Positions 30,362 to 54,328 of a DNA stretch of 64,000 nucleotides are shown here, piece after piece. The position numbers and the translations under genes are program-made. Source of the DNA: an uncultured Spirochaetota bacterium (GTDB lineage Bacteria; Spirochaetota; Spirochaetia; JAFGXN01); NCBI GenBank assembly GCA_944390005.1, contig CALXOJ010000003.1:175329-239328 (forward strand), given 5' to 3'. Each line of letters opens with the position of its first letter. Position 1 is the first letter of the stretch. Below the pieces are notes generated by a model, which searched no databases, was not told where the DNA came from, and saw only the letters and a program-made list of their open reading frames with translations.

Positions 30362-32452
30362 TCAGGATTCCTCTTCGTCGGCACTCATGCGCGAACGGCC
30401 TTCTTCGATAACCGTTTCAGCCTGTTTGCCGGAAATTGGACTGTAATGGGAAAAGTCGATTTCGTAAGAGCCGGTTCCCGACGTCAGCGCCTTCAGTTCG
30501 ATGGCGTAACGCTGAATTTCGCTTTGAGGCACTTCAGCGTCGATTTGGGTAATTCCGCCGCCGATTGATTCCTGCCCCTGAATGCGGGCCCGTTTGGACG
30601 ATAGATTGGAGAGGATGTCGCCGATGTACGCTTCATCGGCAAAGACGTGCATCAGCATAATCGGCTCGAGCATCACCGCAGCGCCGTTTTTCATCGCTTC
30701 GCGCAGACAACCGCGCGCGGCCAGCTTAAACGCCATTTCGGAAGAATCGACCGGATGCTCTTTTCCGTCGTAAATTGTTGCCTTCAAATCGACAATCGGA
30801 TAGCCGGCCAAAAATCCCCGTTCCATCGCCTCCAGAAGTCCCTTTTCGATTCCGGGCATATAATTTTTTCCGACGGCGCCGCCTTTGATTTCGTTGACGA
30901 ATTCGAAATTCATTCCCCGTTCCAGCGGTTCGAATCGCATGACAACGCGGGCATACTGACCGTGGCCGCCGGACTGCTTTTTGTGCGTGTATTCGGCTTC
31001 GCACGGCTTGGTAATCGCTTCCCGATAGGCGATTTTCGGAATTTTGGTTTCATAAGCGATTTTGTTTTTATCGAGAGCGTTTTCCAAAATCATATTGAGG
31101 TGCATTTCGTCCATTGCGGAAATCACCGTCTCCTTCGTTTCGGCATTGTAACGCATGGTGAAGGTTAAATCCTGCTGTCCCGCTTTTTGTAGGAATTCGT
31201 TGAGTTTGTCTTCGTCTTTTTTATCTTTTGCGGTGACGGCAACCGAATAGGTCGGATGCGGCAGCCGAAGATTGTGGTAGCGGTACGGAAAACCGGCTTC
31301 AGCCAGCGTGTGATTGGTGGCAATTCCGTCGATTTTCGACAGCGCGCCGATAGCGCCTGCTGAAAGCAGATCCATCTCAATCAGCTTTTTCCCCTGTACG
31401 TTGTAAAGTTTACCGACTTTGATTTTAGCACCGGTATTGAGATCGATCAGCTCCGCATCGGGATGGATGACACCGCTCATCATTTTGATGTAGGAGAGCT
31501 TGCCGGCGAATTTATCGAATTTGGTTTTGATGACCATCAGCGACACCGGAGCGTCGGAGGAAATGGTCAGATCAACTTTTTGTCCTTCGCCGTCGATGCC
31601 TTTTTCACCGACCGCATCGGGAGAAGGTGCGACAATTTCCAAAAAATTCAGGAACGAAGCGATTCCATTATTCAGGACGGCGCTTCCGCACATCACCGGC
31701 ACTACGCGTGTGCTGCGGATGCCGAGTTTCAGTCCCTTGCGGATGTCGTCTTCGCTTAGCGTGCCTTCGTTGAAATATTTTTCAATCAAATCATCGGCGC
31801 CTTCGGCCGCCAATTCGATCATCTGTTCGCGCATTTCGGCGACCAAATCCTTCATTTCTTCGGGAACGGGTGAAGCGACGTCTTTTTTGCTTGGATCGTG
31901 CACTAAGTACGCTTTTTCTTCTATTAAATTAACGATTCCTTTAAAATCCTTTCCGGAGCCGATAGGAATGGTTACCGGAACGAAGTTTTTTTTGAATTTG
32001 GTTCGCAGATCTTCGATGACGGCAAAGTAGTCTGCGTTATCGATGTCCATTTTATTGATGAAAACAGCGCGCGGTTTTTCTCTTTGATTGAGCCGCCGCC
32101 ACAACTTCAGTGTTTCAATCTGGACGCCGCTTTTGGCGTCGATTACGACAAGAGCCGATTCGCATGCTCTTAAACCGACAATCACTTCGCCGACAAAACC
32201 GGCGGCTCCCGGCGTATCGAGAAAATTCATTTTATGCCGGTTCCACATTAAATGTGTAAACGACGTGTAAATCGAAAAGCGATGGTTGATCTCTTCTTCG
32301 GTGAAATCACTCATCGTTTTGCCGCTTTCCACCGATTCGGCCTTTGCGATGACGTCAGCGTTGAACAGCATCTGTTCCAAAAGAGTCGTCTTTCCCGTTC
32401 CGCCGTGGCCGACAATGGCGACATTTCTCAATTCTTTGGTGGCAAATCCCAT
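30362..32452 (-). CDS. elongation factor G paralog (EF-G2-type translational GTPase)
   Basis: G1 motif AIVGHGGTGKTTL, then DTPG, NKMD, and EF-G domains II-V. The N-terminal motif resembles EF-G2 rather than canonical FusA. Start re-placed at ATG 32450-32452 (MGFATKELRNV). Confidence 0.85.
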   Translation of the reverse strand: MGFATKELRNVAIVGHGGTGKTTLLEQMLFNADVIAKAESVESGKTMSDFTEEEINHRFSIYTSFTHLMWNRHKMNFLDTPGAAGFVGEVIVGLRACESALVVIDAKSGVQIETLKLWRRLNQREKPRAVFINKMDIDNADYFAVIEDLRTKFKKNFVPVTIPIGSGKDFKGIVNLIEEKAYLVHDPSKKDVASPVPEEMKDLVAEMREQMIELAAEGADDLIEKYFNEGTLSEDDIRKGLKLGIRSTRVVPVMCGSAVLNNGIASFLNFLEIVAPSPDAVGEKGIDGEGQKVDLTISSDAPVSLMVIKTKFDKFAGKLSYIKMMSGVIHPDAELIDLNTGAKIKVGKLYNVQGKKLIEMDLLSAGAIGALSKIDGIATNHTLAEAGFPYRYHNLRLPHPTYSVAVTAKDKKDEDKLNEFLQKAGQQDLTFTMRYNAETKETVISAMDEMHLNMILENALDKNKIAYETKIPKIAYREAITKPCEAEYTHKKQSGGHGQYARVVMRFEPLERGMNFEFVNEIKGGAVGKNYMPGIEKGLLEAMERGFLAGYPIVDLKATIYDGKEHPVDSSEMAFKLAARGCLREAMKNGAAVMLEPIMLMHVFADEAYIGDILSNLSSKRARIQGQESIGGGITQIDAEVPQSEIQRYAIELKALTSGTGSYEIDFSHYSPISGKQAETVIEEGRSRMSADEEES

Positions 32453-32611
32453 ATTCCGCTCCTTTGCCGCATCGGTCTGAGCGCCCGCTGCAGCTCCACT
32501 ATTTATTTTCAGTCCGACGGAAGCAAAAGTCAAGCGATTTTTTAAAGTCGAAATCTTGATTTTTATCGGAAATTTATATATCTTTAACAAGAAGGAAGAG
32601 TAAAAGATGTG

Positions 32612-32685
32612 CAACTCAACTCAACTCAACTCAACTCAACTCAACTCAACTCAACTCAACTCAACTCAACTCAACTCAACTCAAC
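32612..32685. repeat. pentanucleotide microsatellite (CAACT)14 + CAAC in divergent intergenic region
   Basis: A perfect run of CAACT units spans 32612-32681, plus a partial unit. The listed ORF 32607-32828 (NSTQLNSTQL...) is just its translation. Confidence 0.95.
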
Positions 32686-33248: not shown

Positions 33249-33668
33249 TTTGGTTTTACCGACAGTGGTAATTCATACTCTCTTCCGCGCGCAGTTGATT
33301 CGGAGTTAGGCGGCTCTTCTGCGAATTCTTTAGAACGCGCCGTGCAGTAAGCCGCCGGGTTTGTTGCGTTCAGTCAATTTTTTACTGTTTAAAAGAGCTT
33401 ATTGCGGTTCTCGGGGTAGTTGCGTCCGAAATCCTTTGCCGGAAGCCGATCCTGCAAGGCGTGCGCCCCTTTTTCGGATCCGCCGCCTTCAACGCAGTCT
33501 CCTGTGCCTTTTGAACCGCCCACCGCCTCATTTGTTCTATTCTTTTGCTGCCCAAAAACGCATAAAAAAAAGAAAAAGTTTTTTCAAAAAAACCTCTTTT
33601 TTGACATTAATCATGATAGAGCGTATGTAAAAACTTCGCAGCAAAAGCCCCAAATCCGCGGAGGTGTT

Positions 33669-34451
33669 ATGAAAAACTACAGCGAACTGACCCTAACCGA
33701 CGACTACCTGTTCAGCCAAGTAATGAAAGACGAAAGCGTGTGCAAGCCGTTTCTGGAAATGCTTCTGGAAATCAAAATAGCCAAAATTGAGTATTTGCAG
33801 GAACAGAAAGAGTTGAACCTCTTCCCCGACTCCAAAGGCGTAAGGCTGGACGTCTACCTTGAAGGAGACGGAAAGGTGTACAACATCGAAATGCAGGCAG
33901 GACGCGATCAATACCTCATCTGCCGAATGCGCTACTACCGGGCGGCGATCGACATCGACATGATGATGAGAGGCAGCGGGTACCGGGAACTGAAACCCGT
34001 GTATATCATATTTCTCTGCCGATTTGACCCGATAGGGAAGGGATTGGCGAGGTACACGCTGAGGAAATACTGTGAGGAGACGGGAGAAAAAATCGATGAC
34101 GGACAGACGGAAATCGTGTATAATGTGAATGCGTATGAGAGAGCGGGGCGCGGGAAGGTACGGGAGCTTCTGAGGTATTTAGCGACCGGAGAGGCGCAGG
34201 AACCGGAGGTGAAGGAGTTTGCTAAGAAGATAGCCCGTTTTAAAGAGACGCAGCAGTGGAGAAAAGGAAACATGAAATACGAGTTAGATTTACAAGACGC
34301 CCGCATTGAAGGAAAGGAAGAGGGACGCAGTGAGACACTGCTGCTGATTATTGAGAATGGAGTGAAGCAAGGGTTAACGCCCGAGCAGACGGCGGCGCTG
34401 ACGGGGTTAACGGTTGACGAGGTGGAAGCACTGCGGAAGCGGATTCGGTAA
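33669..34451 (+). CDS. Rpn-family PD-(D/E)XK nuclease / 'putative transposase' (TIGR01784-like), copy 1
   Basis: The D...E.Q core is VRLDVYLEGDGKVYNIEMQ. The C-terminal low-complexity E/G repeat tail (EGKEEGRSE) and helix ...GLTPEQTAALTGLTVDEVEAL are typical of this family. The first 214 aa are identical to copy 2. Confidence 0.75.
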   Translation: MKNYSELTLTDDYLFSQVMKDESVCKPFLEMLLEIKIAKIEYLQEQKELNLFPDSKGVRLDVYLEGDGKVYNIEMQAGRDQYLICRMRYYRAAIDIDMMMRGSGYRELKPVYIIFLCRFDPIGKGLARYTLRKYCEETGEKIDDGQTEIVYNVNAYERAGRGKVRELLRYLATGEAQEPEVKEFAKKIARFKETQQWRKGNMKYELDLQDARIEGKEEGRSETLLLIIENGVKQGLTPEQTAALTGLTVDEVEALRKRIR

Positions 34452-34577
34452 AAACGATCGATTTTCAAATAAATCCGTTCTCGAAGCTCAAACCCGCCTT
34501 TACCCGCGCCCGGTTTTCCAAAGGCGTTTCGCTGCCCTAAACGGGAACGAAAGTTGCCTCAAAAGACACAAAACACC

Positions 34578-34860
34578 GCGTTAAAGACGACAGATTCTCA
34601 AACGCAACCCACCGCAGTCGAAGCTTAAAATATTGCGTTAAAATCCACTGATTCGCCAAAGAAACTCACAGCTATCGAAGTTTACCCACTACGTTAAAAT
34701 CCACCGATTCGCCAAAGAAACCCGCCGCAGCCGAAGCTCAAAATATTGCGTTAAAGGCCTCTGATTCGCCAAAGACATCAAACATTGCGAAGTCAAAAAA
34801 TTCCCTTTAAAGGCGGCAGATTCTCAAATAAAACCACAGCGGTATTAAATAAAGACGCAA
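34578..34860. repeat. tandem array of ~5 degenerate 56-57-bp repeats downstream of Rpn copy 1
   Basis: Units start at 34578, 34635, 34691, 34748 and 34804. The consensus is roughly GCGTTAAAATCCACCGATTCGCCAAAGAAACCCACCGCAGCCGAAGCTCAAAATATT. The same family lies at 39601-39815. Confidence 0.7.
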
Positions 34861-35741
34861 ACACGATTGTCTTGGAGTCGAGCGCTGTGACGGAGGGCTC
34901 AAACACGTATACGGCAACTTTATCCGCGTTCGGATACACGAATTTACAGTTGAGTTGGGCGAATGTAGAGATCGACAAAACCGCCCCCTTACAAATTCTT
35001 GGTGTTTCGTTTGATAGGACAGCGGATGGAACCTCTGTCACCGCTAACTGGACCTTGCCGAATGGACATGACATTGCCAAAGTCGTTTTCACTGAATTGG
35101 TCGGCAATGGAAATACTTCTTCAGACAGCGTAAATGCGTCGCACGTTACAGACAAAGAAGGCGGTATCGTTGCAGAATTTTCTATAACAGGGGCAAATGA
35201 AACCAGCGGTGTTATTGATGATTTAACAGCTGACGCCCCCTATTGGTTCATGGTTCACACTGAAGACGCGGCGGGCAACAAAAGCGTGCGCGCAAGGGAT
35301 AGCGTCGCCGGAACTGTTGCGCCGGACGACAACGGCTTCATGGTGCGGTTCACTTCATCTCAACTGGATGAAGAAGCGCCTTACATAACGAATGCAACCG
35401 GTTATTTTGACGGGACGCATTACATTTTTTCATGGGATAATCCGAACGGATACGACGTTAAGATTGCCAAAAAAGGTGCAAATTTGGCACTTGGAGAGAG
35501 CGACGGCAGCTCAGAAGGCATCGTTGAATGGATCACGGATGAAACCGACAGCAACAAGAAAATCGGCGCAAAAGTCAAACTGGGTGAGGTGACAAATTCC
35601 TACAATTTCCGTTTGATGGTTTACGCGACGGATTCAGATACGGCTTCAACCAATACACCTGATACAACCAATGACTTTCAAGCGTTCTGTCTTTTCTATT
35701 TCCCGGAAAATCAGGCCAATGAGGTTACGCCTGCAAATTAA
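34785..35741 (+). pseudogene. 5'-truncated fragment of a fibronectin-type-III-like surface protein gene
   Basis: The ORF starts at a TTG inside the repeat array, and its first ~25 codons are translated repeat sequence. There is no signal peptide. The downstream part shows two FN3-like modules (e.g. DKTAPLQILGVSFDRTADGTSVTANWTLPNGHD) and ends at a strong terminator. Confidence 0.35.
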
Positions 35742-35746
35742 CCATT

Positions 35747-35773
35747 GGCGTCCCTGCGGGGACGCTTTTTTTT
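35747..35773 (+). terminator. Rho-independent terminator
   Basis: Stem-loop GGCGTCCC-TGCG-GGGACGC followed by T8. Confidence 0.7.
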
Positions 35774-35810
35774 CTTTTGTCCCTCTTTTCAAAAAAAAAT
35801 AAAAAAAAAG

Positions 35811-35839
35811 TTGACAAATAGAGGGGGGGGGGGACAATA
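35811..35839 (+). promoter_or_regulatory. putative promoter of the sulfatase gene with the G11 tract in the spacer
   Basis: TTGACA at 35811-35816. A 17-nt spacer (35817-35833) ends in the G11 run. A weak -10-like ACAATA lies at 35834-35839. A9-T-A9 AT-tracts sit upstream (35781-35799). Confidence 0.4.
35823..35833. repeat. homopolymeric G11 tract
   Basis: Eleven consecutive G at 35823-35833, the only long poly-G in the window. Confidence 0.95.
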
Positions 35840-35876
35840 ATAGTAAATAGAAAAAAATTTTAAAAGAGGTATAATT

Positions 35877-38231
35877 ATGAAGAAGCGTAAATCAGCACTT
35901 TCTTTATTATCGGTAACAGCGGCGTTATTGGCGGGCGGCTGCCCCGAAACGCCGCCGATTGAGTCGCAGACGCCTGGAGGGGATACGGAAAATCCCGGAG
36001 GCGGCGGTACAGTGACGCCGTCCGGCCGCATGAATATCATTTTGTTCATGGTTGACGACATGGGGCTTAACGACTCGTCGGTTCAGTTTTTGGAGGGCGG
36101 TTCGAAATTGAACGAATATTACCACACTCCGAATATGGAGCGGTTGGCAGAAAAGGGGGTCCGCTTTACAAGCGCTTACGCCGCGCCCGTATCCTCGCCG
36201 ACGCGCATTAGTTTGATGACAGGTTCCAACGCAGCGCGCCACCGCGTGACCAACTGGACACTGAATCTCAATGACAACACTGATGCCTCGTTTCAAAATA
36301 ATTTGGCAGGACAGCCGTGGAACTGGAACGGTATTTCTCCCGATGTTAACGGTGACGTAACCTCAAACAACATTTATGAAACCACAACATTCCCACAGAT
36401 TTTACAAAAAAACGGGTACCGCACCATCCACCTCGGAAAGGCGCACTGGGGGGCTATCAGCACAAAGGCGGCTGAACCGCTGAACCTCGGTTTTGACGTC
36501 AATATCGGCGGGGCGGCGCCGGGAGGTCCGGATAACTATGCCCTTACTAATGCTTCACAGGAGTACACCGGTTTTCAAATCCCATTTCCGCGTCTCAATG
36601 AATACGCGACAGCCGAAACAAATTACCACATTACCGACGCGATTACCAACGCCGCGCGGTCGGAGATTGACCGCGCCGTCGAGGACGGAACGCCGTTTTA
36701 TATGTACATGTCGCACTACGCCGTCCATTCGCCGTATACTCAGCCAGATGAGCGCTTTTACAAATTCTACGAGGGTAAATCAACAGCTGACCAGACGATT
36801 TACGGAACGAGGAACAAGAACTACGGAACGCTGGTCACCGGTATGGATAAATCCCTCGGCGAGCTGATGGATTACTTGGAAGAAAAAGGGATTGCCGATA
36901 AAACCATCTTGATTTTTATGGCTGACAACGGCGGACACCATGATAACAAAAATACGCCGCTTAGAGGCTCAAAAGGATCGATGTGGGAAGGCGGTATTCA
37001 TGAGCCGATGATGGTTTACTGGCCGGGCGTGACCGATGCTTATGCCGGTCAAAAGAATGATTCGCCTGTCATAATTGAAGATTTTTATCCGACAATTTTG
37101 GAAATGGCAGGCGTCGCTCCCGGAAGTTACGACAGCGAACTGAAGCAGACTGTCGACGGCAAGAGCTTTGTATCTGCGTTAAAAGGCAATAAGCCCATCA
37201 ATACCGATCGCGCACTCTATTTTCATTATCCGAACAAGTGGGGGGAGGCAACTACTCTGAATAGTGATCCCGTCGGTTTTCCGTCAAGCGCCATCATCAA
37301 AGACGGATGGAAGTACATTTATTTCTACGGCACCGGTAAAGAATATCTCTTCAATCTGACAGCAGACGAAATTGAAGAGACAAATTTGGCAGAGACTAAT
37401 GCCGAGAAAAAAGCAGAATTGGCGAAAGATTTGTCCGATTACCTGAAATCGGTCGACGCAACCATGGTTTATGACAGCACTTCGGGAGTGATTACTTATC
37501 CGGACGGCACAACGGATAATGCATTTACATACAAAGTGGGAGACGACAATGTCTTTTACATCGATATCAACGATCAAAACGGATCGGTAGAGAATGAGCC
37601 GTTAGCCGGCCGCGGTGCACACACTGGTGCGGTAACAGAAGAAGACAACTTCACGATTTCTTTTGAAGATGGAACAGAAGTGACCGGTTCGATAGCGTGG
37701 ACCGGCACTGTAAAACCCAACGGTGACAACGGAAGGTTTGCTTCTGTGGAAGAAGCCAATGCGTTCGGCAGCCTGTTCTCCGGTTTCACAAAAGAAGAAA
37801 CTTTAAGCAATGCTCTGCTTCCTGTTTGGGCGGATGCGGTAACGCTGGAGACGGATAGTCCTTCGGCTGTCATTCTATTGGAAGGCCTGCCTGAAGGAAC
37901 ATACGAAATCGGTTTGCTGAGTGTGCGCAATAACAGCTACTACGGAACGAACAACGGCAGTCTGATTAAAAACGCTGTTTACGACATAACCACCGGAACC
38001 GTAAGCGAGGCACAAGCTTTCGGAACCAAGAAAAACGTTGCCGACAGCAATTTGACAGATAAAGCGGTGCTGTCTGAAACCGATAAGTTTACCGTGAATC
38101 AAGACGCCGGTACGGACTCCGAAGTGTGGGGTTTCCGTTTCAGCTGGACAGTGACTCCCGAAAATGAAAGGATTGAAATCACTGTTTCCGGAACCTGCTC
38201 CTTGAATGCGTTGAGAGTCGAAAAACGTTGA
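35877..38231 (+). CDS. Ser-type sulfatase lipoprotein with ~230-aa C-terminal module of unknown function
   Basis: Lipoprotein signal MKKRKSALSLLSVTAALLAGGC. The sulfatase signature S-S-P-T-R-ISLM-TG has Ser at the formylglycine position. The metal-binding DDMG is near the N-terminus. A C-terminal extension from ~aa 553 is homologous to the C-terminus of the 62082-63764 protein. Confidence 0.85.
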   Translation: MKKRKSALSLLSVTAALLAGGCPETPPIESQTPGGDTENPGGGGTVTPSGRMNIILFMVDDMGLNDSSVQFLEGGSKLNEYYHTPNMERLAEKGVRFTSAYAAPVSSPTRISLMTGSNAARHRVTNWTLNLNDNTDASFQNNLAGQPWNWNGISPDVNGDVTSNNIYETTTFPQILQKNGYRTIHLGKAHWGAISTKAAEPLNLGFDVNIGGAAPGGPDNYALTNASQEYTGFQIPFPRLNEYATAETNYHITDAITNAARSEIDRAVEDGTPFYMYMSHYAVHSPYTQPDERFYKFYEGKSTADQTIYGTRNKNYGTLVTGMDKSLGELMDYLEEKGIADKTILIFMADNGGHHDNKNTPLRGSKGSMWEGGIHEPMMVYWPGVTDAYAGQKNDSPVIIEDFYPTILEMAGVAPGSYDSELKQTVDGKSFVSALKGNKPINTDRALYFHYPNKWGEATTLNSDPVGFPSSAIIKDGWKYIYFYGTGKEYLFNLTADEIEETNLAETNAEKKAELAKDLSDYLKSVDATMVYDSTSGVITYPDGTTDNAFTYKVGDDNVFYIDINDQNGSVENEPLAGRGAHTGAVTEEDNFTISFEDGTEVTGSIAWTGTVKPNGDNGRFASVEEANAFGSLFSGFTKEETLSNALLPVWADAVTLETDSPSAVILLEGLPEGTYEIGLLSVRNNSYYGTNNGSLIKNAVYDITTGTVSEAQAFGTKKNVADSNLTDKAVLSETDKFTVNQDAGTDSEVWGFRFSWTVTPENERIEITVSGTCSLNALRVEKR

Positions 38232-38277: not shown

Positions 38278-38643
38278 GTATTTCGGGCGCGTGCGCGCCG
38301 CAAGCGGCGCGCACCGGGCTTTCCGCTGCAATTCGCAGCCTCCCGCGCCTTTACCGAGGCAAAGCTGCCGCTTTGCCCTGCGCCATCTCTCCGTCGGCAG
38401 CTCATTTCCGCTCCAATCCCTCGCGCCTTCGAAAGCGTGCGCCCCTTTTTCGAATCCGCCGCCTCCAACGCAGTATCCTGTGCCTTTTGAGTCTCATACA
38501 GCCTCATTTGTTCTATTCTTTTGCTGCCCAAAAACGCATAAAAAAAAGAAAAAGTTTTTCAAAAAAACCTCTTTTTTGGCATTAATCATGATAGAGCGTG
38601 TGTAAAAACTTCGCAGCAAAAGCCCCAAATCCGCGGAGGTGTT

Positions 38644-39474
38644 ATGAAAAACTACAGCGAACTGACCCTAACCGACGACTACCTGTTCAGCCAAGTAATG
38701 AAAGACGAAAGCGTGTGCAAGCCGTTTCTGGAAATGCTTCTGGAAATCAAAATAGCCAAAATTGAGTATTTGCAGGAACAGAAAGAGTTGAACCTCTTCC
38801 CCGACTCCAAAGGCGTAAGGCTGGACGTCTACCTTGAAGGAGACGGAAAGGTGTACAACATCGAAATGCAGGCAGGACGCGATCAATACCTCATCTGCCG
38901 AATGCGCTACTACCGGGCGGCGATCGACATCGACATGATGATGAGAGGCAGCGGGTACCGGGAACTGAAACCCGTGTATATCATATTTCTCTGCCGATTT
39001 GACCCGATAGGGAAGGGATTGGCGAGGTACACGCTGAGGAAATACTGTGAGGAGACGGGAGAAAAAATCGATGACGGACAGACGGAAATCGTGTATAATG
39101 TGAATGCGTATGAGAGAGCGGGGCGCGGGAAGGTACGGGAGCTTCTGAGGTATTTAGCGACCGGAGAGGCGCAGGAACCGGAGGTGAAGGAGTTTGCTAA
39201 GAAGATAGCCCGCTTTAAAGAGACGCAGCAGTGGAGGAAAGGAAACATGAAATACGAATTAGACTTACAAGACGCCCGTGCGGAAGGCATTGAAATCGGA
39301 CGAAGCGAAGGGCTGGAAGAAGGATTGGAGAAAGGCCATTCCGAGGGACGTTATGAAATGGCTGTCCTTATCACAGAAAATATGATGAAGCAAGGATTAA
39401 CGCCCGAACAGACGGCGGCGCTGACGGGGTTAACGGTTGACGAGGTGGAAGCACTGCGGAGGCGGATGCGGTAA
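38644..39474 (+). CDS. Rpn-family PD-(D/E)XK nuclease / 'putative transposase' (TIGR01784-like), copy 2
   Basis: Identical to copy 1 over the first 214 aa. It has a longer C-terminal E/G-repeat tract (AEGIEIGRSEGLEEGLEKGHSEGRYEMAVLITENMM), 16 aa more than copy 1. Confidence 0.75.
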   Translation: MKNYSELTLTDDYLFSQVMKDESVCKPFLEMLLEIKIAKIEYLQEQKELNLFPDSKGVRLDVYLEGDGKVYNIEMQAGRDQYLICRMRYYRAAIDIDMMMRGSGYRELKPVYIIFLCRFDPIGKGLARYTLRKYCEETGEKIDDGQTEIVYNVNAYERAGRGKVRELLRYLATGEAQEPEVKEFAKKIARFKETQQWRKGNMKYELDLQDARAEGIEIGRSEGLEEGLEKGHSEGRYEMAVLITENMMKQGLTPEQTAALTGLTVDEVEALRRRMR

Positions 39475-39600
39475 AAACGATCGATTTTCAAATAAATCCG
39501 CTCTCGAAGCTCAAACCCGCCTTTACCCGCACCTGATTTTCCGAAGGCGTTTCGTTACCCTAAACGGGAACGAAAGTTGCCTTAAAAGACCCAAAACACC

Positions 39601-39815
39601 GCGTTAAAAGCGACAGATTCTCAAATAAAGCCACAGTTGTCGAAGCTCAAAATATTGCGTTAAAATCCACCGATTCGCCAAAGAAAACCACAGCTGTCGA
39701 AGTTTAACCACTGCGTTAAAAGCGCCCGATTCTCCAAAGAGCCCCACAGCAGTCGAAGCTCAAAATACTGCGTTAAAATCCACCGATTCGCCAAAGAAAC
39801 CCACCGCAGCCGAAG
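39601..39815. repeat. tandem array of ~4 56-57-bp repeats downstream of Rpn copy 2
   Basis: Units start at 39601, 39657, 39713 and 39770. Same family as 34578-34860. Confidence 0.7.
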
Positions 39816-39952: not shown

Positions 39953-39981
39953 TTGACAATGCGGCGGTAATAGGCTAAAAT
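39953..39981 (+). promoter_or_regulatory. near-consensus sigma70 promoter of tetR-family gene (TTGACA-17-TAAAAT), predicting a leaderless transcript
   Basis: TTGACA at 39953-39958, a 17-nt spacer, TAAAAT at 39976-39981. The ATG at 39988 lies 7 nt downstream with no room for an RBS. Confidence 0.5.
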
Positions 39982-39987
39982 CGTAGC

Positions 39988-40605
39988 ATGTACGAGGAGA
40001 AAGCCGGCGATTCCCGCAGAAACCTCATTTATAAAGAAGCCGTTCGGATGATTGCCGAGCGCGGATTTGCGGCGACTTCGGTTCGTGATATTTGTAAAGC
40101 GGTCGGAATTAAAGAGAGTTCGTTCTATATCTATTTTTCAAAGAAAGAAGAGATTCTCAGCGAGGTGTTTTCTGAATTCGAGGCGTTGTTTTTGAAAGCT
40201 CCGGTTTCTGACGAACAAATTGCGTCATTAACCGATGAGTTTTCCCCTCGGCGGATTCTGGTTGAAGCGCTTTCGCTTTGTTTCGGCCGGCTGCGTGATG
40301 AGTCGGTGCGGCGGCTTTGGCGTGTGGTGATTGTCGAGCAGTTTTGTGATGAGCGGGCGGCGTGTGCATTGCGCAGTGTCAATCGGCGTTTGGCGGAGAC
40401 GGCAGGCGGTTTGTTTGCACAGTGGCGCAGGCGCGGGTTTCTCGATAATCCTGAAGCGGTGGTTCCGGCTGCAGAGTTTTTTGCTGCTTCTGTGAGAATG
40501 CTTTTTTACGATTGTCTTTCGCGCGGAGGGGGAACGCCGCCGCCGGAGGAGATTGAGAGATTGGCGGCTTTTTTTCTTTCTGTTCTGAAGGTTCGTTTTG
40601 TGTAA
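39988..40605 (+). CDS. TetR/AcrR family transcriptional regulator
   Basis: N-terminal HTH IYKEAVRMIAERGFAATSVRDICKAVGIKESSFYIYF matches the TetR_N signature. 205 aa. Confidence 0.8.
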   Translation: MYEEKAGDSRRNLIYKEAVRMIAERGFAATSVRDICKAVGIKESSFYIYFSKKEEILSEVFSEFEALFLKAPVSDEQIASLTDEFSPRRILVEALSLCFGRLRDESVRRLWRVVIVEQFCDERAACALRSVNRRLAETAGGLFAQWRRRGFLDNPEAVVPAAEFFAASVRMLFYDCLSRGGGTPPPEEIERLAAFFLSVLKVRFV

Positions 40606-40617
40606 ACGGAGGTTTTT

Positions 40618-41331
40618 ATGGGGAAAAATTTGACTGTATTTTTTACAGGGTTGTTTTTGGCTCTCGGTATTGCCGCGGCTGGCGGAGCTGTCTGTTACGG
40701 TTTGATTGCAGGAAAACAGGCTAACCGGACGGTAAGTGTTCGCGGTTTAGCCGAGCGTGAGGTTGATGCCGATCTGGCGGTGTGGCCGTTGAAGTTTACC
40801 GTCGCTGCCGATGATTTGACTTCTTTAAACGAGGCGGTCAAACGCGATTCGGCTATAGTCGAAGCGTATCTGGCGAAAAATAACGTCGGCAAGGCTGATA
40901 TTGTCAAGCAGTCGATCAATGTCGACGATGAAGCGCAGAGAATGTATGCCAATTCTACGCCGCGTCCGTACCGTTACATCGGGGAGGTGACTTTCTTGAT
41001 TCGTTCTGTTAACATTGAAGCGGTTAAAGCGGCCGACCGCAATTTGAGGGATTTGATTGCGCAGGGGGTGCTTTTGTCGAATAATTACGGCGCTTCACAG
41101 GCACAGTTTCTCTTCAACGGATTGAACGACATTAAACCCGATATGATTGCCGAAGCCACTGTCAATGCGCGGGCAGCCGCCGATCAATTTGCTAAAGATT
41201 CAGGCAGCCGTGTCGGACGCATTAAAACGGCGACGCAGGGACTTTTTTCGATCACCGATGTTAACGAAGCGATGCCGGAGAAGAAAATCGTTCGTGTGGT
41301 TAACACCGTTGAATACTTTTTGACGGATTGA
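40618..41331 (+). CDS. SIMPL (DUF541) domain periplasmic protein
   Basis: An N-terminal TM/signal precedes RTVSVRGLAERE, the first beta-strand of the SIMPL fold. The C-terminal pattern A...AAADQFAKDSGSRVGRI fits this family. Confidence 0.5.
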   Translation: MGKNLTVFFTGLFLALGIAAAGGAVCYGLIAGKQANRTVSVRGLAEREVDADLAVWPLKFTVAADDLTSLNEAVKRDSAIVEAYLAKNNVGKADIVKQSINVDDEAQRMYANSTPRPYRYIGEVTFLIRSVNIEAVKAADRNLRDLIAQGVLLSNNYGASQAQFLFNGLNDIKPDMIAEATVNARAAADQFAKDSGSRVGRIKTATQGLFSITDVNEAMPEKKIVRVVNTVEYFLTD

Positions 41332-41342
41332 GGCCCGGAAAG

Positions 41343-42854
41343 ATGAAAAATCAGTTGCTTTTCGGGTTTTCGATTATCACGACGGGAGTGTTTGCTCAGG
41401 CGAATGATCGTCCGAACGTGGTTTTTGTCGTTGGGGATGATGTCGGTTACGGCGATTTGAGTTGTTACGGTGCAGAGAAGATTCAAACTCCGAATTTGGA
41501 TCGGTTAGCGTCGGACGGCTGCCGTTTTACGGCGGCTCACAGCTCGGCGGCAACTTCGACTCCGGCGCGGTATGCGCTGCTTACGGGGACTTACGGATTT
41601 CGTTCGGGAATGGATGTTTTGCCGGGAGATGCGGCGATATCGATTCCCGAGGATAAAATGACGCTTCCGATGGTGTTTCAAAAGGCCGGTTACGAAACGG
41701 CAGTTGTCGGAAAGTGGCACTTGGGTTTGGGACGAGGAAAAATCGATTGGAATCAGCCGATTTCTCCGTCGCCAAATGACGTCGGTTTCGACTACAGTTT
41801 TATTATTCCTGCCACCAACGATCGGGTACCGTGCGTTTATGTACAAAACGGTTCGGTTGTCAATGCGGATCCCGATGATCCGATTACTGTCGATTACAAG
41901 AATCCGATTTTGGGAAGCGAATATCCCGACGGCCGCCGTCAACCGGAGACGATGGCGGAATATCCAAGCAGTCACGGTCACAATATGTCGGTTATTAACG
42001 GAATCGGACGAATCGGTTACATGAAGGGTGGAAAAAAGGCTTTGTGGAACGATGAAACCATTGCCGACACTTTGCTTGGAGAGGCAGTCGATTTTATCGA
42101 AAAACACCGAACGGAACCTTTTTTTCTAATGTTTAACTCCAACGATATTCACGTGCCGCGAGTTCCGCATCCGCGCTTCCGAGGCGTATCGCAGCACGGT
42201 TTGCGCGGCGATGCTATGGTTCAGTTGGACTGGTGTGTCGGTGAGTTGATGAAAACATTGGATCGTTTCGGATTGACGGAAAACACGATTTTCATCTTTA
42301 CTAGTGACAACGGTCCCGTTTACGACGACGGTTACCGGGACGGATCGACCGTTCATCTTTTCAGTAAAGAGAATGACAATGGACATGATGCCAGCGGTCC
42401 GTGGTTTGGTGGAAAATACGATATGCGCGAAGGCGGTACCTGCGTGCCGCTGATTATCCGCTGGCCGAATCGGGTAAAACCTGCTTCCGAATCCGATGCA
42501 TTGGCAGCGCAAATCGATTTCCTTGCAACCTTTGCCGATTGGTTTTCTGTTCCGCTTTCCGATGATGAGGCTTTGGACAGTGTCGCGCGTTTTGATCTCT
42601 TTTTCAACAATGCGCCGGCGAAAGAGCCGCAAGTTTTGATTGAAGAGAGCTATGATCGCCTTTCACTTCGCTGGGGCCAATGGAAGTACATGGAAAAAGG
42701 AAAGAAGCTGTTTGATTTAAACGAATCGCTTGAAGAAAAGAAAAATCTTCGTTTTCAAAACCGAGACGAGTATGAATTTGCCTCCGAGACTTTAAAGACA
42801 TTAAAAAAGATCGGTGTGCGCGAATGGATGAAATCTGTAGAGACTCTTGAATAA
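41343..42854 (+). CDS. Ser-type sulfatase (arylsulfatase family), secreted
   Basis: Signal MKNQLLFGFSIITTGVFAQA. GDDVGYGD metal site. Signature S-T-P-A-R-YALL-TG has Ser at the formylglycine position. Start placed at ATG 41343; the listed 41328 is a TTG. Confidence 0.85.
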   Translation: MKNQLLFGFSIITTGVFAQANDRPNVVFVVGDDVGYGDLSCYGAEKIQTPNLDRLASDGCRFTAAHSSAATSTPARYALLTGTYGFRSGMDVLPGDAAISIPEDKMTLPMVFQKAGYETAVVGKWHLGLGRGKIDWNQPISPSPNDVGFDYSFIIPATNDRVPCVYVQNGSVVNADPDDPITVDYKNPILGSEYPDGRRQPETMAEYPSSHGHNMSVINGIGRIGYMKGGKKALWNDETIADTLLGEAVDFIEKHRTEPFFLMFNSNDIHVPRVPHPRFRGVSQHGLRGDAMVQLDWCVGELMKTLDRFGLTENTIFIFTSDNGPVYDDGYRDGSTVHLFSKENDNGHDASGPWFGGKYDMREGGTCVPLIIRWPNRVKPASESDALAAQIDFLATFADWFSVPLSDDEALDSVARFDLFFNNAPAKEPQVLIEESYDRLSLRWGQWKYMEKGKKLFDLNESLEEKKNLRFQNRDEYEFASETLKTLKKIGVREWMKSVETLE

Positions 42855-54171: not shown

Positions 54172-54328
54172 AAAATTATGAACGACGACAGAAGCAAGCA
54201 AGCAGTATCTTTATGTAACAAATCAGAAAAGTCCTCATTCGGTAACAAAGGGCGGTGTTTTCCCCAAGGGGAAATGCCGTCTTTTTTTATATTCCCACAA
54301 ATTTATTAAAAAGATGGAGGAAAGAACG

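Follow-up and report, generated by a model that had tools for sequence, protein, structure and literature searches.

A hypervariable G tract in the predicted promoter of a sulfatase gene from an uncultured gut-type spirochaete

A tract of eleven G residues lies in the spacer of the putative sigma-70-type promoter of a sulfatase gene in the window, the term used here for the whole 64-kb stretch of DNA that was analyzed. The length of this tract differs among metagenome contigs which are otherwise identical or nearly so over about 4 kb. The observed lengths bracket the predicted 17-nt spacing optimum, with the common ones centred there, and the tract probably functions as a spacer-length switch or rheostat at the sulfatase promoter.

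The G tract and the predicted promoter

The first-pass annotation had singled out G11 (35823-35833) as the only long homopolymeric tract of the window, and both its coordinates and its standing as the longest run were confirmed, the runners-up being A9 and T9 runs. It is the sole G or C run of at least 7 nt in the 64 kb (C runs of this length are absent), against an expectation, for independent bases at 49.7% GC, of approximately 6 runs of at least 7 nt and 0.027 runs of at least 11 nt. Runs of 7-9 A or T residues are common, totalling 70 in the 64 kb. G/C runs of at least 7 nt were also absent from approximately 6 kb past the window end, and a search for further tracts revealed none of at least 8 nt in any of the spirochaete loci fetched. 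Since a single G run of at least 7 nt was observed where about six were expected, G/C homopolymers appear, on the basis of the window counts, to be selected against genome-wide, and G11 stands out. When the exact DNA pattern GTTGACAAATAGAGGGGGGGGG was searched against the JGI metagenome contigs, no matches were obtained.

The features between the upstream gene and the sulfatase gene are as follows.

Ending at 35741: stop codon of the upstream ORF
35747-35773, + strand: intrinsic terminator of the upstream gene, a GC-rich 8-bp stem (35747-35766) followed by T8 (terminator scan, RNA fold)
35791-35809, + strand: A9-T-A9 tract on the immediate 5' side of the -35 box, spanning roughly -55 to -37, a candidate UP-like element (sequence)
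35811-35816, + strand: putative -35 box TTGACA, perfect consensus, invariant in an alignment of 11 representatives
35817-35822: AATAGA
35817-35832, + strand: putative promoter spacer, 16 nt here, consisting of AATAGA and the first 10 G (promoter scan, alleles)
35823-35833, + strand: G11 homopolymer, the hypervariable element, present as G9, G11, G12 or G13 in clean copies from other samples (sequence, contig comparison)
35833-35838, + strand: putative -10 box GACAAT (4/6 against TATAAT), its first base being the last G of the tract (promoter scan, conservation)
From 35834: sequence immediately 3' of G11, beginning ACAATAATAG
35836-35841, + strand: second, allele-specific -10 candidate AATAAT, 5/6 (sequence, allele alignment)
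35845-35847, + strand: predicted transcription start, an A 7-9 nt past the -10 box; the 5' UTR would then be some 30 nt long (from promoter geometry)
35864-35869, + strand: ribosome-binding site AAGAGG, 7 nt 5' of the ATG (sequence; invariant in the alignment)
35877: sulfatase ATG

The terminator folds as RNA at -16.3 kcal/mol (z -3.87), and none of 200 shuffles was as stable; the sulfatase gene therefore needs a promoter of its own. Based on a consensus promoter scan, TTGACA-16-GACAAT (10/12 matches) was identified in the 135-nt intergenic gap, between the terminator and the ribosome-binding site. TTGACA by itself is no rarity, 48 copies being present on the two strands of the window where about 31 are expected, and the evidence for a promoter here is the combination of an intergenic box after a terminator, an A-tract on its 5' side, a ribosome-binding site on its 3' side and conservation among alleles. 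In the window allele the -10 box, GACAAT, is a weak one, with 4/6 matches and no extended TG; in all related alleles the hexamer is GATAAT (5/6), likewise starting at the last G of the tract.

The tract had been described as lying 38-54 nt upstream of the sulfatase ATG, which is correct, within a 17-nt spacer between a perfect TTGACA and a -10-like hexamer. The TTGACA stands. The hexamer proposed (ACAATA, 35834-35839) agrees with TATAAT at only 1/6 positions and is out of register by one base, and since GACAAT starts at the last G of the tract the spacer is 16 nt here, not 17, while G12 would give 17. Spacer length equals tract length plus 5, so that G9, G11, G12 and G13 correspond to 14, 16, 17 and 18 nt. 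The AATAAT hexamer, 3 nt beyond GACAAT, would have a spacer of 19 nt at G11, shortened to 17 nt at G9. Because the P0003/P0004 and P0049/P0065/P0067 alleles do not conserve it, this hexamer was rejected as the main -10 box and is kept only as an allele-specific second register.

An UP element is an A/T-rich block at about -40 to -60 which is contacted by the C-terminal domain of the alpha subunit. The A9-T-A9 tract, for which this role had been proposed, has a fitting location and is conserved: the form A6-10-T-A8-9 is kept in all alleles, including those of contigs L062 and L063, which have unrelated sequence farther upstream. The tract is regarded as a candidate UP element.

The other intergenic promoters of the window, at 39953, 46014, 54143 and 55830, read TTGACA-17-TATAAT or TTGACA-17-TAAAAT, and the organism therefore appears to use E. 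coli-like sigma-70 geometry with a 17-nt optimum. A further consensus match, TAGAAA-16-TATAAT (35848-35875), was rejected as a promoter of the sulfatase gene. Its -10 box (35870-35875) falls between the ribosome-binding site and the ATG, and a transcript from it would begin inside the ORF, lacking the ribosome-binding site and the signal peptide, so no translatable full-length message would result. The predicted promoter that holds the tract is the sole credible one between the terminator and the ribosome-binding site. An invertible promoter was likewise rejected: convincing flanking inverted repeats were lacking, the matches being short, mostly A/T-rich and in one case partly pairing with the ribosome-binding site region, and the orientation of the promoter was identical in all contigs. 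None of the Rfam families came near its gathering score on 35600-36000, i.e. no known leader RNA was detected there.

A pyrimidine tract, TTGTCCCTCTTTTC (35777-35790), is complementary, G-U pairs included, to the G-tract region 35821-35837. In a hypothetical read-through RNA the two would pair at -19.2 kcal/mol, marginally better than shuffles (z -1.96). The divergent L062 allele has a different yet pyrimidine-rich stretch at the same position. The complementarity may be due to chance.

Tract length among metagenome contigs

Fifty-one contigs, drawn from two assembly sets, were found to encode either the exact protein or one of seven close alleles (82-96% identical to it, or members of the 90% cluster to which it belongs). 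Copies were accepted as clean when they had an intact A-tract followed by GTTGACAAATAGA, Gn and A(C/T)AAT, which left 26 (25 contigs and the window). The tract was G9 in one of these, G11 in nine, G12 in ten and G13 in six. The modal length, G12, corresponds to a 17-nt spacer, and 25 of the 26 copies have spacers of 16-18 nt. The length heterogeneity which the first-pass annotation had proposed to look for was accordingly found, between samples.

Length also differed within groups of identical protein: 9, 11 and 12 for the window allele, 11, 12 and 13 for P0003, and 12 and 13 for P0065. Contigs L006 and L008 align with the window over 4198 and 3872 bp, respectively, with no mismatches and one 1-nt gap each, and L005 over 5481 bp with one mismatch and one gap. 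Contigs L051 to L055, which together with L050 come from six different samples, each match L050 over approximately 4000 bp with no mismatches and only a gap of 1-2 nt. In every contig pair compared the gap size equalled the tabulated difference in G-tract length. As an internal control, the two flanking A8-10 runs and the T8 run were constant within every protein-identical allele. Since the G-tract gap is the sole or near-sole difference over about 4 kb, the tract is by far the most changeable site of the locus.

Alleles hardly differ in the promoter itself, A-tract through ATG, and even those with only 82% protein identity retain an uninterrupted tract; promoters with such a tract were found in two separate assembly sets. 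In L062 and L063 the terminator and the end of the upstream gene are replaced by different sequence, while the promoter is retained. No G tract was found upstream of the nearest homolog outside the clade (L011, from a Spirochaetia MAG, 59% identity) or upstream of L081 to L085 (other Spirochaetia homologs, about 60% identity). Only the clade of alleles with at least 82% identity thus possesses the tract.

All of these lengths are consensus calls from short-read assemblies, in which poly-G is error-prone. Eighteen of the 51 contigs have their first base no more than 160 nt 5' of the ATG, in several cases within the tract itself, and some others have garbled A-rich sequence upstream of it. The tract is thus a recurrent breakpoint in short-read assemblies of this organism, which accounts for the short length (2.4-6 kb) of most contigs carrying the gene. 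Breaks and garbling at the tract fit within-sample heterogeneity and, equally, poly-G sequencing trouble. L054 (G12) and L055 (G13) may, by accession-number arithmetic, come from one sample, in which case their one-base difference could be either within-sample heterogeneity or a one-base call error.

It could accordingly be argued that the tract has one stable length (about G12) at a constitutive promoter and that the differences are Illumina or assembler poly-G errors. We consider this unlikely. Most of the differences are indeed merely +/-1 nt, and broken contigs or low-quality A-rich upstream sequence (L004, L009, L010, L037, L040, L041, L043-45, and likewise L066, L068, L070-72) are what it would lead one to expect, but frequent breaks would also follow from true heterogeneity within samples. 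The consensus differs by up to 2-3 nt among contigs at approximately 8-24x coverage, as in L050 (G11 at 23.6x), L052 and L053 (G13 at 9-11x) and L002 (G9), while the neighbouring A9, A9 and T8 runs never vary. Lengths from the second assembly set agree as well, the ENA and Logan calls being 11/11, 12/12 and {12,13}/{12,13}.

A second explanation, to which we give little credence, is that the tract truly varies without acting through spacing, as a regulator binding site or DNA-structure element, or neutrally, with transcription starting elsewhere. The homopolymers in the opc and tprL promoters need not act by spacing (PMC7864442), and the pyrimidine tract complementary to the G tract and the second consensus match at 35848-35875 could be cited in its support. 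The fold of the former is, however, marginal against shuffles, the latter would give a transcript starting within the ORF, and a strong terminator stands upstream. Moreover, the lengths cluster on spacers of 16-18 nt, as is predicted by the spacing model and not by a binding-site model.

That the lengths are fixed strain markers of a slowly mutating tract, with no switching device, is highly improbable, for although the data are between-sample comparisons and similarly named sample groups share alleles, contigs otherwise identical over about 4 kb (samples BRZ_SG, SH, SK, SL and others) show 11, 12 and 13 G, so that no other site comes near the tract in its rate of change. Differences between samples are no proof of reversible switching at high frequency inside one population.

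The sulfatase and its genomic neighbourhood

The main features of the sulfatase gene and its product are listed below.

35877-38231, + strand: sulfatase gene, 784 aa (Pfam PF00884)
35940-35942: codon for Cys22 of the putative signal peptide, with the lipobox-like LLAGGC
36192-36206: Ser-type formylglycine motif SSPTR (S106-S-P-T-R110), which aligns with the BT3796 motif
Residues ~49-531: S1_16-like catalytic domain

The gene downstream of the tract had been called a sulfatase lipoprotein gene. The first part is borne out by a match to Pfam Sulfatase PF00884 (E 2e-46). As to the second, the N-terminus (MKKRKSALSLLSVTAALLAGGC; MKKRKSALSLLSVTAALLAGG-C22) resembles a spirochaetal lipoprotein signal, with a basic n-region, a hydrophobic core and Cys22, but the lipobox has Ala, not Leu, Val or Ile, at position -3. 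Ala at this position is accepted by relaxed spirochaetal lipobox rules, and the product is probably a lipoprotein.

The best PDB matches were 7OZA (BT3796, S1_16; E 1e-114), 7OZ9 (BT3057, S1_16) and 9FO1 (kappa-carrageenan sulfatase, S1_16), and by its closest characterized relatives, rather than by formal SulfAtlas classification, the enzyme is S1_16-like. Residues 49-529 align with BT3796, the S1_16 4S-Gal/GalNAc sulfatase of Bacteroides thetaiotaomicron. Common to both proteins are the Ser-type SxPxR motif and HRVTNW, whose Trp may correspond to the residue reported to stack against the sugar in BT3796. The window protein differs in its spirochaetal lipoprotein signal and in an extra C-terminal region of approximately 250 aa, for which no Pfam match was obtained; the BT3796 gene belongs to a polysaccharide utilisation locus. 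One radical-SAM gene was noted in the window (60491-61798); it also has a UPF0004 domain and is not annotated as a sulfatase maturase.

Compared with L038, L050, L060 and L062 the sulfatase gene is mosaic. The promoter and first 300 nt are 95-100% identical, and nt 600-1500, inside the catalytic domain, show 69-83% DNA identity between alleles. This pattern suggests recombination or diversifying selection on the central part.

For the EF-G encoded in the window (30362-32614, minus strand), identities of 86-99% were obtained solely with metagenome proteins, and the EF-G proteins of Marispirochaeta, Sediminispirochaeta and Spirochaetales MAGs reached 55-58%. Judged by this protein, the organism is an uncultured member of the Spirochaetia, neither a Treponema nor a known pathogen. 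MAGs from the samples in which it occurs include Prevotellaceae and Bacteroidales, suggestive of a gut habitat.

Direct repeats of approximately 1.3 kb (33456-34775 and 38432-39797; 85-98% identical), each with a PDDEXK_2 "transposase"-family gene, flank a cassette made up of a 318-aa ORF and the sulfatase gene, and many assemblies break there. Deletion, duplication or exchange of the cassette could result from this arrangement. The 318-aa ORF (34785-35741) has a TTG start, no signal peptide and no Pfam match. At the same position in other strains (L050, L062, L076) a larger Flg_new-repeat surface protein of 565-649 aa is found; the ORF looks like a 3' remnant of such a protein, probably truncated by the PDDEXK_2 repeat.

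Two tandem paralogues (54314-55666 and 56001-57563) carry Flg_new and FGE-sulfatase (PF03781) domains, each preceded by an identical perfect TTGACA-17-TATAAT (54143 and 55830, respectively). A second sulfatase of 508 aa (41328-42854) is encoded in an apparent TetR-SIMPL-sulfatase operon (39953-42854) behind TTGACA-17-TAAAAT, which suggests conventional repressor control, unlike that of the poly-G promoter 4 kb upstream.

Proposed mechanism and comparison with known systems

We propose that the G tract acts as a hypermutable simple-sequence repeat in the spacer of a sigma-70-type promoter with the layout A-tract, TTGACA, AATAGA plus Gn, and GA(C/T)AAT. Slipped-strand mispairing during replication would add or remove G residues, and the altered G number would change the use of the promoter by RNA polymerase. 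G12 would give the optimal 17 nt and G11 and G13 would give 16 and 18 nt, while shorter or longer tracts should silence the promoter. Cells would as a result differ, heritably yet reversibly, in how much they make of a probably surface-anchored lipoprotein, the S1_16-like carbohydrate sulfatase, and these differences could be graded or on/off. The placement of the tract in the promoter spacer and the slippage-switch interpretation, both put forward by the first-pass annotation, are supported at the level of sequence comparison. The transcription start, the dependence of transcription on tract length, the reversibility and rate of switching, surface exposure and the substrate are inferred.

A rheostat is at least as likely as an on/off switch because lengths of 11-13 all give probably permissive spacers. 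A clear OFF length is undocumented among the 26 copies, since the 25 with spacers of 16-18 nt are probably all permissive and the lone G9 copy (L002) places the allele-specific AATAAT at 17 nt.

The closest precedents are two promoters with the tract in the spacer. In tp0126 of T. pallidum, which encodes an OmpW homolog (Giacani et al. 2015), a poly-G lies in the spacer and transcription is best at 17 nt, according to the summary in PMC7864442. The two cases share a spirochaete host, a poly-G between the -35 and -10 boxes of a sigma-70-type promoter, and a target which is an envelope protein with a signal peptide. They differ in that the organism here is an uncultured non-Treponema member of the Spirochaetia from gut-type metagenomes, the target is a carbohydrate sulfatase, probably a lipoprotein, and not a porin-like outer-membrane protein, and the last G of the tract belongs to the putative -10 box; the present case is, moreover, known from sequence rather than from fragment-length or reporter data. 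In porA of N. meningitidis a G tract of about 9-11 nt in the -35/-10 spacer sets graded expression, with transcription best at 17-nt spacing and lost when the spacing drops below the optimum (PMC7864442). That system belongs to another phylum and another gene class, and its variation has been established by experiment, whereas here it is deduced from sequence and between-sample polymorphism. With porA and tp0126 the present locus, at a predicted promoter, has in common the spacer position, polymorphism (between samples) and bracketing of 17 nt.

The tpr genes of T. pallidum, with which the tract had originally been compared, have a poly-G that coincides with or overlies the -10 box or else is close to the transcription start, and in tprE/G/J no more than 8 G permits transcription, a CRP homolog being involved (PMC7864442). 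The analogy is sound insofar as tprE/G/J and tprL, too, have a hypervariable poly-G at the promoter of an envelope-protein gene in a spirochaete. The geometry is nearer to porA and tp0126: here the tract fills the spacer, all lengths are at least 9, the gene encodes a sulfatase and the organism is not Treponema-like, and the locus falls outside tpr-type poly-G regulation.

Promoter-spacer slippage switches are textbook devices for the surface antigens of pathogens. A literature search found no report of homopolymer control of a sulfatase gene. The mechanism is already known from porA and tp0126, and what is unusual here is the target, a glycan sulfatase which is probably a lipoprotein, and the host, an uncultured gut-type spirochaete.

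We tentatively suggest, as a possibility somewhat short of probable, that in a commensal, uncultured gut-type spirochaete a pathogen-style contingency locus tunes host-glycan foraging, its target being not an adhesin, porin or LPS gene but that of an S1_16-like Gal/GalNAc-sulfate sulfatase which is probably anchored at the surface. The mosaic, highly divergent centre of the same gene and its place between two repeats with recombination-nuclease-like genes would, taken together, make it a hotspot at which selection, through immune, phage or public-good pressure, diversifies glycan desulfation. If the slippage switch is real, the ability of a gut spirochaete to reach sulfated glycans of host or diet would vary stochastically and heritably within its population, and G-tract length would be a simple marker, readable from metagenomes, which could be correlated with host, diet and inflammation.
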